From: Alphaproteobacteria bacterium
Lineage (GTDB): Bacteria > Pseudomonadota > Alphaproteobacteria > Rs-D84
Reading direction: 5' to 3'
Assembly: GCA_017451625.1 (NCBI GenBank)
Contig: JAFTNY010000033.1
Location: forward strand, 13,800 to 77,799
DNA: 64,000 nt
Below the pieces are notes generated by a model. That model saw only the letters and a program-made list of their open reading frames with translations, did not search any database and had not been told where the DNA came from. This document shows, piece by piece, positions 48,419 to 50,548 of this stretch. Numbering within the stretch: the first letter of the stretch is position 1; each line of letters opens with the position of its first letter. The position numbers were made by a program, and so were the translations under genes.

Positions 48419-50548
48419 ATGAAAAGTCAGAAAATCGCGGATTCTTTCAAGAATGCAGTTGGAACTGTTTTCCTGCTGGCGGGTGCGTTTTTTGTATGTT
48501 CAACGTTATTGTCAATGCGTGCGGTCTTGGCGGACCCAATCGCCCCATATGATCCAAATTCTGTTGCCGCGCCACAGTCTGGGCGTGCGGCAACAACACG
48601 TAATTCTGGTCGGACCAGTCCGCGCAACACTGCCGCGACATCGCGTGCAACGGTTGCCCGTACTGCGGTTGCCACCCCATCGGCAAATGCATCGCGTGCC
48701 ACCACATCGCGCAGCACTGTACAAAGTCGCGCCGTCGCATCGCGTGCAAACGCACAACGCGCCACTGCAAATGGTCGCGTGAATGCCGCATCGCGCAATG
48801 TTGTTTCACGCCAGATGGCGGCCACATCGCGTGCAAATGCAAACAGTACGCGCAGTGTACGTGCACGCACCGCAACAACAGCCGCGGCCCAGAATGCCCG
48901 CGTTTCATTACAGGGCAGTGCGATACGCGGGTCCAAGGCGTCTGCACCAACATCCTATTCATACCTGACCAACAAATTGTACACTGGCAATTATTCAAAC
49001 ATCATTGATTCTACGACTGGCTTGATTTCTGCTGATGCGTTCAGCAACTGTATGGAATCATACTATACCTGCATGGACGAAATTTGTACGGCACGTAACG
49101 CGGCCCAGCGTCGTTGTGCATGTGCCGGTCGTGTCAAGGCCTTTGCAGAGGCAGAAACCGCCTTGGAAACCGCCAACGAAGAATTGATTAAGGTGTCCGG
49201 TGAATTGGCATTGCTGATTGCGAACAAGGGTAAAGACGTTTCCGAGGCATTCCAGTTAACAGATGCAGAAAAAGTCATGAACTGTGTTTCATGGCGCGAC
49301 GCCAGCAAAAATGGCACCGCCAGTGAAGAAGAATTTGGCACATGGTGCGAAGAACATGGTATCTTTGACAATACTTGTTCTGAAAAATCGTCCCCATCAT
49401 ACTGCAAAGAAGACGGAAATGATTTTGGATTCGATGTCAAGAATCTGGATGGAAACGGTTCTGACATCTTGGCATCATTGCAGGCATGGGCCAACGCCAA
49501 AGAACAGACATTAACAATCGTAACCGATGACACAGACAGTCTGACATCCGCATTTGACAACCTGTCATCTGTGGTCAGTGGTCTGGCCGGTATCGACGGT
49601 GCGTTATCATCTTCGGATTCTTTGACCGACAGTTTGGCCGAAACATGGGGCTATGAATTATTTGAATACGCCCACAACAATGTTTGCGCACGCGTATTGG
49701 ATTCCTGCTTTAACGGTATTTTCGAGGCCTGCGGCACCCCACCATCTGGCACCAAGTGCAGCAATGGTGCCGCCCAGTGTCCATATAATTACAACAGCCA
49801 CATTACTGTAAACAACACTGGCACATACGAATTAAACTTCGTTAACCCCAGCAGTGGCTACAGCGCATCGAATACCGCAACATGTTTTGGCTATACCGCT
49901 GCATCTGGCGATCCATATTCAAATCTGCGTGGGCCGGTTGCAGATGCCCGTCGCAGCATTATGCAGAAATACGCCTTGGATGCGAACGCAGACTGCGATG
50001 CATATGGTGAACAACTGCGTACAACGGCACAGAATATTGGCTATCAAAAGGTTGCCGCACAACAGGCACTGCAACAGAAACGTTTGGAATTCGCCACCGA
50101 AGAAGCGGAATCCATCTTGAATGCAGCGGTTCAGGCGGGTACGAACTTTAACGAATGTTTCAGTGAAATCTATGACTGCTATGAAACACAGTTGTCATCA
50201 AATCCGTCATGGCCAGATGCGCGTATCAAAACATACTGCGCCCAGATTGCAAACGTTCCACATTGCTATGAAGAAATGATTTGTAATCCATCTACGTCCC
50301 AGTTCAAGGCCGTTATTGACAAGGCAGACAGTGATAAGTGTAACAACACCCAAGATTATACCACAAACACATGCCGCAATATTGTGACATTGAATGAAAT
50401 CTTGAATGGTACTGGCGCAACGGTCCCAACTGACTTTGACCCACGCACCGGTCAGGATTCGGCCACAATACGTGAACAGTGTTTGCTGGATTCAGGTGTT
50501 GAAAGTATCAGAAACTGGTTCGAAGAAAACCGCAAGAAAGAAAACTAA
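48419..50548 (+). CDS. Large secreted Cys-rich protein (paralog of 39445..41709) with Ser/Arg/Thr/Ala-rich tandem-repeat region
   Basis: Signal peptide 'MKSQKIADSFKNAVGTVFLLAGAFFVCSTLLSMRAVLA'. Repeats '(A/T)TSRA(N/T)...R' cover ~aa 50-170; the conserved 'CMESYYTCMDEICT...RRCACAG' block follows. The ORF-track start at 48356 is a less likely alternative. Confidence 0.65.
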   Translation: MKSQKIADSFKNAVGTVFLLAGAFFVCSTLLSMRAVLADPIAPYDPNSVAAPQSGRAATTRNSGRTSPRNTAATSRATVARTAVATPSANASRATTSRSTVQSRAVASRANAQRATANGRVNAASRNVVSRQMAATSRANANSTRSVRARTATTAAAQNARVSLQGSAIRGSKASAPTSYSYLTNKLYTGNYSNIIDSTTGLISADAFSNCMESYYTCMDEICTARNAAQRRCACAGRVKAFAEAETALETANEELIKVSGELALLIANKGKDVSEAFQLTDAEKVMNCVSWRDASKNGTASEEEFGTWCEEHGIFDNTCSEKSSPSYCKEDGNDFGFDVKNLDGNGSDILASLQAWANAKEQTLTIVTDDTDSLTSAFDNLSSVVSGLAGIDGALSSSDSLTDSLAETWGYELFEYAHNNVCARVLDSCFNGIFEACGTPPSGTKCSNGAAQCPYNYNSHITVNNTGTYELNFVNPSSGYSASNTATCFGYTAASGDPYSNLRGPVADARRSIMQKYALDANADCDAYGEQLRTTAQNIGYQKVAAQQALQQKRLEFATEEAESILNAAVQAGTNFNECFSEIYDCYETQLSSNPSWPDARIKTYCAQIANVPHCYEEMICNPSTSQFKAVIDKADSDKCNNTQDYTTNTCRNIVTLNEILNGTGATVPTDFDPRTGQDSATIREQCLLDSGVESIRNWFEENRKKEN
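48590..48900 (+). repeat. Imperfect ~30-bp in-frame tandem repeats ('(a/g)catcgcg(t/c)gc...') encoding SR/TR-rich decapeptide units
   Basis: 'catcgcgtgc(a/c)a' recurs at least 6 times at ~30-bp spacing inside the CDS. Confidence 0.5.

Follow-up and report, generated by a model that had tools for sequence, protein, structure and literature searches.

A conserved arginine-rich, low-complexity segment, not a tandem-repeat antigen, in a cysteine-rich protein family of gut Alphaproteobacteria

The gene examined here occupies positions 48419..50548 (+ strand) of a 64,000-nucleotide (nt) stretch of contig JAFTNY010000033.1 (assembly GCA_017451625.1), referred to below as the window, from Rs-D84, a lineage of gut Alphaproteobacteria that have not been cultured and whose genomes measure about 0.9 Mb. 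As originally predicted, its product looks exported and is Cys-rich, with 24 Cys residues following a signal-peptide-like N terminus; the description "giant" was too strong for a protein of 709 amino acids. The region read at first sight as hypervariable "SR/TR repeats" is a conserved low-complexity segment and is neither a DNA tandem repeat nor a copy-number-variable antigen. The gene, called the target below, belongs to an ancient pair of tandem genes that has been conserved throughout Candidatus Enterousia and Rs-D84. We hold this descriptive account (the anatomy, composition and conservation of the protein, the lack of repeats and variability, and the family) with high confidence. The target is laid out as follows.

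48419..50548, + strand: coding sequence of the 709-residue protein, stop codon included (orthologs; same protein in three datasets)
48419..48532, + strand: N-terminal export signal, residues 1-38 (MKSQKIADSFKNAVG), with a 19-residue hydrophobic stretch and a candidate cleavage point between RAVLA and DP, as read from the sequence
48533..48928, + strand: Arg-rich, positively charged, low-complexity segment predicted to be disordered, residues 39-170, the "SR/TR repeats" (composition and model confidence)
48638..48836, + strand: span of three in-frame copies of a 13-nt word, ACATCGCGTGCAA (codons T-S-R-A), at 48638, 48737 (one mismatch) and 48824, 99 and 87 nt apart
48929..49030, + strand: conserved segment before the Cys motif, residues 171-204, GSKAS..YSYLTNKLYTGNYSNIIDSTTGLIS (alignment, many invariant columns)
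49031..49288, + strand: family signature module, residues 205-290, C211-x6-C218-M-D-x2-C223-x9-C233-x-C235 and then a long helix
49289..50545, + strand: acidic, mostly α-helical Cys-rich core, residues 291-709, holding 24 Cys together with the module

The composition of the Arg-rich segment is strongly skewed. Residues 39-170 include 20 Arg, no Lys, no Glu and two Asp (positions 39 and 45), for a net charge of about +20, and the wider stretch from residue 41 to residue 210 contains 37 Ala, 26 Ser, 22 Thr, 20 Arg and 15 Asn. AlphaFold2 gave residues 39-170 a predicted local distance difference test score (pLDDT) of 26-38, that is, predicted disorder. The G+C content of the DNA encoding the segment is 0.605 (61%), compared with 0.47 in the rest of the coding sequence. 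The protein units had been described as about 10 residues long, with the form (A/T)TSRA(N/T)xxxR. The actual units are of the form xxxxR, with Arg mostly every 4-7 residues, as is seen when the sequence is cut after each Arg (AATTR, NSGR, TSPR, NTAATSR, ATVAR, ATTSR, STVQSR, AVASR and ANAQR).

These units had been attributed to imperfect DNA repeats of about 30 bp at 48590..48900. Tandem Repeats Finder, run at its most permissive minimum score of 30, detected nothing between 48419 and 50548. Nucleotide autocorrelation over 48590..48898, compared with 500 codon shuffles, gave no 30-nt periodicity (z = -0.68 at lag 30); the best lag was 15 nt (z = 2.97), with a maximum that was reached by 24% of the shuffles. 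A gapless repeat search returned weak families only, of 60-80% identity and with spacings of 99, 87, 39, 27, 141, 48, 84, 36 and 15 nt, and the best ungapped self-match of the segment had a score of 14 (p = 0.10). The sole DNA-level repetition beyond what the amino acid sequence demands is the recurrence of the 13-nt word, which yields 16 shared 10-mer pairs as against 1.7 under synonymous-codon resampling; 8-mers are also in excess. The spacing of this word suggested a repeat of ~90-99 nt, which was rejected on the grounds that similarity around the word stops within ~28 nt. The pattern that had been noticed is real as composition and short motifs, not as a tandem array.

The second expectation, that copy number would vary between strains, was not borne out either. 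Within six strain-level clusters (at least 90% identity, 11-142 members each, all from short-read assemblies) the length of the protein is essentially constant, at 709, 708, 689, 717, 730/731 and 714 residues, respectively. Departures from these lengths are due to alternative start calls, to fragments or, in one member, to a C-terminal extension. The lone indel in the SR region across the six clusters is a one-residue deletion at residue 84, present in 2 of 15 sequences. Substitution density in the segment was 0.2 to 3.8 times that of the core inside the clusters.

In comparisons between species, no other part of the protein is as poorly conserved as the segment (30-63% identity to the query as against 85-98% for most of the core), and the distance from the start codon to the Cys motif ranges from 183 to 230 residues by way of scattered small indels. 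Nevertheless, the term hypervariable does not fit a segment of constant length within clusters in which 14 of the 20 Arg positions are at least 90% conserved (43 orthologs). Ratios of nonsynonymous to synonymous substitution rates (dN/dS; Nei-Gojobori method, ~55 close pairs) were 0.08-0.43 for the segment in most pairs, with a median of ~0.18; two near-identical pairs had dN = 0 and hence a ratio of 0. The corresponding values for the core were mostly 0.02-0.09, with three close pairs at 0.16-0.24. Because dN/dS for the segment lies above that of the core yet well below 1, the segment is clearly under relaxed yet purifying selection. Diversifying selection on the segment was not seen in these ~55 pairs.

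Length polymorphism does exist in the family, at the other end of the protein. In some species the orthologs are 844-1094 residues long owing to C-terminal extensions of 145-360 residues. The extensions consist of ~45-residue Cys repeats of the form C..GY.L.....CV, some of which are like ephrin-receptor or furin repeats; a Pfam search with them gave no significant match. In practical terms, the SR/TR locus represents compositional low complexity and is unsuitable as a strain-typing or antigenic-variation locus.

The regions flanking the Arg-rich segment are better conserved. Residues 1-38 are 80-86% identical to the query among orthologs and were modeled by AlphaFold2 as a helix at residues 3-36. 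We read them from the sequence as a probable long Sec signal peptide with a positively charged N-terminal end, for which cleavage is predicted; an uncleaved membrane anchor is a live alternative. A lipoprotein reading was discarded, as FFVC is not a lipobox. On the other side of the segment, identity to the query across orthologs rises from 63% at residues 161-180 to 86-87% at residues 181-204. Nearly all of the 25 Cys residues of the protein, of which 24 lie beyond the signal peptide, are invariant across orthologs. Residues 171-709 have a net charge of about -36, and the core was modeled as long helices, with pLDDT values of 66-88 reached for approximately residues 520-709 only. Mean pLDDT was 50.7 for the full-length protein with 43 sequences and 55.6 for residues 171-709 with 81 sequences.

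The existence of the predicted reading frame is well supported. The MKSQK start at 48419 is common to more than 100 orthologs, and the identical 709-residue protein was recovered by independent assembly in three datasets. The gene is bounded by the following signals.

48302..48330, + strand: sigma-70-type promoter, TTTACA, 17-nt spacer and TATAAT with an extended -10 TG, matching 11 of 12 consensus positions
48337..48418, + strand: 5' leader of ~82 nt from the putative transcription start, with two stem-loops and a GGGAGAG Shine-Dalgarno sequence
50546..50577, both directions: two-way intrinsic terminator hairpin with a 14-bp stem, overlapping the target stop codon

The promoter is among just five matches of at least 11 of 12 positions in the window, both strands counted, and the same promoter is found upstream of target orthologs in more than 40 other species (Enterousia). 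The centroid fold of the leader comprises two hairpins, the fold energy being unremarkable (z = -0.75), and this two-stem-loop leader is kept upstream of the gene across more than 40 Enterousia species. In hairpin 2 (TTTCTGGGC..CCCAGAA), 88% of cells are paired across 46 species; one pair alternates UA/CG/UG in 25/10/8 cases, and other species have TTTCCGG..CCGGAA. Hairpin 1 retains its palindromic form although its sequence changes between species. An Rfam scan of the leader gave no match. Some gene calls instead report a 730-residue open reading frame (ORF) from an ATG at 48356. We rejected this start, which falls inside the conserved leader, lacks a Shine-Dalgarno sequence and is itself unconserved. 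The peptide "GWVSGRFPEHRESF" that appears in some longer gene calls is a by-product of the conserved leader. The target is a single-gene transcription unit and, given the quality of its promoter, is probably highly expressed.

A word-index search returned 1202 homologs of the target, and a scan of GTDB genomes found relatives in at least 278 species-level genomes. The record titles of the 278 are Candidatus Enterousia, Alphaproteobacteria bacterium and "uncultured Rickettsiales" metagenome-assembled genomes (MAGs) from human, ruminant, horse, chicken and other guts. Enterousia has been placed in the order Rs-D84, with genomes mostly below 1 Mb that lack the tricarboxylic acid cycle, respiratory chains and standard transporters, and a partner-dependent lifestyle has been proposed for it (PMC12306168). 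Literature searches turned up no work on the proteins described here, just general descriptions of Enterousia and Rs-D84. One record stands out among the relatives: CAVGNU010000001.1, a 108-kb contig labeled "Bacteroides fragilis isolate H07647-L1_cleanbin_000047", carries a 69%-identical ortholog in an Enterousia-type gene order. This record is probably mislabeled or mis-binned.

An exhaustive HMMER search with residues 171-709 gave 102 cluster representatives. Full-length or fragmentary relatives of the target account for 37 of these (E ≤ 1e-30), and ~45 distant clusters (E of 1e-7 to 1e-3) match the module only. All distant members that were inspected share one layout: an export signal, an Arg/Ala/Ser/Thr-rich segment, the motif C..Y..CMD.FC........RC.CS, a helix and a variable Cys-rich remainder. 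The N-terminal segment carries a net positive charge (+4 to +20) in every one of 24 members, with Arg ~10 times commoner than Lys, and the core is always acidic (net -8 to -49); the spacing of Arg is in most of them more even than in shuffled sequences. Because an Arg-rich, acid-poor segment precedes the Cys module in the distant members too, the segment is a conserved design feature of the family.

The named members are all "hypothetical protein" entries of Alphaproteobacteria or Rickettsiales MAGs, and the family, from Rs-D84 and termite- or animal-gut "Rickettsiales"/Alphaproteobacteria, has no name. By layout the target is a full member of it, having the signature C-x6-C-[ML]-[DN]-x2-C-x9-C-x-C followed by a helix (C211..C235) and, before this module, an export signal and an Arg-rich, acid-poor segment. 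The target group differs from the rest of the family in having the most divergent module, at 19-30% identity to the other aligned members, and an unusually long and conserved N-terminal signal. A word-index search with the module profile found only 17 short unnamed fragments.

Searches against characterized families were negative. Scans of the target and its paralog with Pfam (E up to 0.01), NCBIfam, PHROGs and PADLOC gave no match, and a Pfam scan of 21 module sequences gave weak coiled-coil noise only and no family for the module. A sequence-profile search of the PDB with the target found nothing below E = 0.5. Foldseek comparison of both AlphaFold2 models with the PDB retrieved generic long-helix proteins only, at E values above 0.6, and tblastn against plasmid and phage collections gave no match to the target.

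The paralog is encoded on the same strand within the window.

39445..41709, + strand: distant paralog of 754 residues with 31 Cys and its own extended -10 box (TGATATAAT)

Paralogy between the two proteins had been proposed from a shared Cys block and a matching distribution of later Cys clusters. The relationship is real, with statistical support confined to a module of ~95 residues. The shared block, C..Y..CMD..C........RC.C, was confirmed by BLASTP (E = 5e-11, in an alignment that spans the low-complexity region and the Cys motif) and by hhalign comparison of the two ortholog groups (probability 97%, E = 6e-11), which covers only 93 columns (target residues 190-287). At low stringency the hhalign alignment is collinear over ~600 columns and includes a second confident block, in which CFSEIYDCYETQLSSNPSW is aligned with CMVDIATCYNQQVTQVNAW (C580..W598 against C602..W620), but the longer alignment adds nothing to the score. 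The extended -10 box of the paralog (TATGATATAAT) lies ~15 nt ahead of its ATG, implying a very short leader.

Gene order pairs the two genes and so gives independent support for their relationship. The paralog lies directly downstream of the target in 27 of 83 genome loci and in 48 of 80 metagenome loci; the metagenome scan, made with the module profile, kept close paralog orthologs only and provides gene order, not the neighborhoods of distant members. The widespread order is PagL, target, paralog, DNA polymerase III epsilon, UvrD and then an array of membrane proteins (TM4, TM3, TM2). The species represented in the window is rearranged (21216..24022 and 39445..50548 are involved), and here the target and the paralog are 6.7 kb apart. 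The paralog directly follows TM4 on the same strand, and a PBP1a-MurG cluster and PagL lie between paralog and target.

In the window, the target sits between a cell-wall cluster (PBP1a, MliC-like, MraY, FtsW, MurG) plus PagL on one side and a convergent virB8-virB9-virB10 operon on the other. Other species retain just two of the target's associations, namely adjacency to PagL and pairing with the paralog. The MliC-like gene (43968..44255, membrane-bound lysozyme inhibitor, 95 residues) is located between PBP1a and MraY and is conserved in a few related loci. The virB8-virB9-virB10 operon (52438..57143, - strand) encodes an unusually long VirB10 of 818 residues, with a TrbI domain at residues 410-616 and a Cys-rich C-terminal tail (…CEGNVAPDANGCCPGETYTDMGEQGFNCCPDTGGDCFPP), and a 510-residue VirB9 with a weak, sub-threshold SPOR-like C terminus (E = 9e-4). 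The membrane-protein array at 32772..39386 is composed of five mutually related multi-pass proteins of 397-495 residues, with pairwise identities of 21-24% (E down to 1e-16); four of the genes run in tandem on the plus strand, and the fifth is on the minus strand. Each of TM2, TM3 and TM4 has ..GKK at its end, and the array is kept near the target-paralog pair in many species. It gave no VirB6/TrbL match in Pfam (E up to 10), the PDB or plasmid tblastn searches, so that "VirB6-like" is an impression only.

Three further ORFs of the window encode Cys-containing proteins. The smallest, at 50578..50919 (- strand, 113 residues), is convergent with the target, and one terminator serves both. Its product has a signal peptide (MKTFILIFVSLTITSQIAYA) and matches an ephrin-receptor-like Cys repeat (Pfam PF07699, 24.0 bits; cutoff 23.1). 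In public gene calls its place is taken by an overlapping ORF of 118-120 residues in a different frame (50508..50870), which runs into the end of the target, and this choice looks wrong. The Cys-rich ORFs at 30519..31112 (+ strand, 197 residues, 15 Cys) and 17937..19157 (- strand, 406 residues, 22 Cys) have no Pfam match and lack the CMD-x2-C signature. Secretion of Cys-rich proteins seems to be a theme in this genome.

As to function, we favor, tentatively, an exported, disulfide-rich envelope or surface protein with a positively charged binding tail, a reading that may well be right but that we would not yet call probable. The protein would be exported by the Sec pathway. Where invariant Cys residues follow a signal peptide, structural disulfides outside the cytoplasm are to be expected, and on this ground up to 12 disulfide bonds could brace the acidic helical domain of ~540 residues after export. 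The Arg-rich tail of ~130 residues would then act as an electrostatic tether or adhesive arm with a multivalent grip on negatively charged polymers. Candidate polymers are the cell's own lipopolysaccharide (LPS) or peptidoglycan, in which case the tail would serve anchoring, and the surface of a partner or host cell, in which case it would serve adhesion. Either way, the tail would by its binding keep the rigid disulfide-rich domain in place within the envelope or at the cell surface. Since the Arg positions are conserved, Lys and acidic residues are excluded and Arg is evenly spaced in distant members, the charge pattern itself appears to be functional, and multivalent electrostatic binding of polymers is its most economical reading, with chlamydial OmcB as the best precedent. 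Taken alone, the binding-tether role of the segment is possible but doubtful. We infer signal-peptide cleavage, disulfide formation, final location and binding function in this scheme.

Several points weigh against it. The target has no homology to OmcB or to any characterized protein in Pfam, NCBIfam, PHROGs, PADLOC, the PDB or Foldseek comparisons. The AlphaFold2 models are poor overall, and the fold is accordingly not established. Residues 39-170 contain no XBBXBX heparin-binding motif, the Arg residues being spaced and not clustered. The hydrophobic stretch at the N terminus is long and unusually conserved, so that an uncleaved inner-membrane anchor is possible and the protein might be periplasmic. 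Both the location, periplasm or surface, and the ligand are inferred, and the high expression is read from promoter quality only.

The strongest competing explanation takes up the membrane anchor. The Arg-rich segment could be a non-binding flexible spacer, comparable with the linkers of TonB, TolA and FtsN, that connects an uncleaved inner-membrane anchor to a periplasmic Cys-rich domain. We consider this unlikely, if worth serious attention, and give the same standing to its corollary that the Cys-rich domain functions elsewhere, for example in an envelope stabilized by a disulfide-linked lattice. In its favor, the hydrophobic N-terminal stretch is long (~19-22 residues) and its conservation far exceeds that of ordinary signal peptides; the segment, for its part, is predicted to be disordered, with a sequence that drifts ~4 times faster than that of the core. 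However, a plain spacer needs neither conserved Arg positions nor even Arg spacing nor the near-total exclusion of Asp, Glu and Lys. Moreover, instead of anchors, ordinary short signal peptides of the cleavable type or lipoprotein-like N termini are found in the paralog and in most distant members.

A connection with type IV secretion is somewhat less likely again. The target would in that case be a component of the nearby VirB machinery, an accessory adhesin or a Sec-dependent substrate at its outer face, in the manner of TraN or CagY. The genes virB8, virB9 and virB10 lie 1.9 kb downstream on the opposite strand, the paralog directly follows five related multi-pass membrane proteins that resemble the VirB6 arrays of Rickettsiales, and few envelope machines other than the type IV secretion system (T4SS) can be recognized in the window of this reduced genome. 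Against this, proximity to virB10 is found in this species only and the widespread gene order has no virB. The target has its own promoter and terminator and matches no TraN, VirB or Cag model, and the membrane-protein array has no TrbL/VirB6 match even at E values up to 10.

The antigen of the original prediction, a surface protein in which slippage of in-frame ~30-bp DNA repeats produces antigenic or phase variation, is now very improbable, having failed the refutation criteria set out with that prediction. It accounts for the low interspecies conservation of the segment (30-63% against 85-98% for most of the core), the small indels between species and the threefold in-frame occurrence of the 13-nt word. 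It conflicts with the lack of an array in Tandem Repeats Finder and of 30-nt periodicity, the irregular spacings, the constant lengths in six strain-level clusters, dN/dS well below 1, the conserved Arg positions and the true site of length polymorphism in the C-terminal extensions; moreover, a 13-nt word is far too short for assembly collapse. That the ORF is spurious, decaying or an assembly artifact of a G+C-rich low-complexity stretch can be practically dismissed, for although two long minus-strand ORFs (48427..48936 and 48447..48998, both rejected as genes) run antisense to the Arg-rich segment and its G+C content of 0.61 is atypical, full-length orthologs occur in hundreds of genomes, the plus-strand frame is under purifying selection, promoter and terminator are conserved and independent assemblies agree exactly in sequence.

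A bolder form of the favored tether reading, which we regard as speculative and rather unlikely, has partner-dependent Rs-D84 make cell contact mainly through the target and its tandem paralog, which would form an undescribed class of disulfide-braced helical surface proteins. Evenly spaced poly-arginine arms would grip mucin, LPS, teichoic acids or a protist glycocalyx, and the C-terminal Cys-repeat extensions might tune partner specificity; this elaboration is equally speculative. Candidatus Enterousia and Rs-D84 are widespread in human, livestock and termite guts (PMC12306168). A large gene pair that is retained in every such genome is a reasonable place to seek envelope cohesion or partner attachment. 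The ~95-residue signature module and the Arg-rich design define a concrete family to annotate, outside the described families.

Three known systems invite comparison. The middle repeats of Helicobacter pylori CagY form a helical, Cys-containing surface part of a T4SS, in which recombination between in-frame DNA repeats changes function and antigenicity. CagY is thus a known example of what was first proposed for the target. The target itself shows neither DNA repeats nor strain-to-strain differences in length, and it has no homology to CagY. TraN of the F plasmid is a Sec-exported envelope protein of ~600 residues with ~22 conserved Cys that contacts the partner cell surface. The likeness lies in a Sec-exported, Cys-rich envelope protein in bacteria with a T4SS; the differences are that the target matches no TraN or T4SS model and has no conserved linkage to a T4SS, and that TraN has no positively charged disordered segment.

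The closest resemblance in design is to the chlamydial 60-kDa protein OmcB, which likewise has a signal peptide, a basic N-terminal region and a Cys-rich body of ~50-60 kDa with ~24 Cys. This is an analogy of design and not homology, as there is no Pfam (Chlam_OMP6 / DUF11) or PDB similarity between the two. OmcB is rich in β-structure, whereas the target was modeled as helical. The basic region of OmcB comprises ~40 residues with clustered Lys and Arg (XBBXBX) in a protein that is basic as a whole; the target segment has 130 residues with Arg only, spaced apart, and precedes an acidic core. All of the heparan-sulphate-dependent adhesion of OmcB is carried by its basic N-terminal domain (residues 41-79), a structural role being attributed to the remainder (PMC2229832). 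The outcome is an uncharacterized and very widespread family that by design resembles Cys-rich envelope proteins or adhesins with basic arms.

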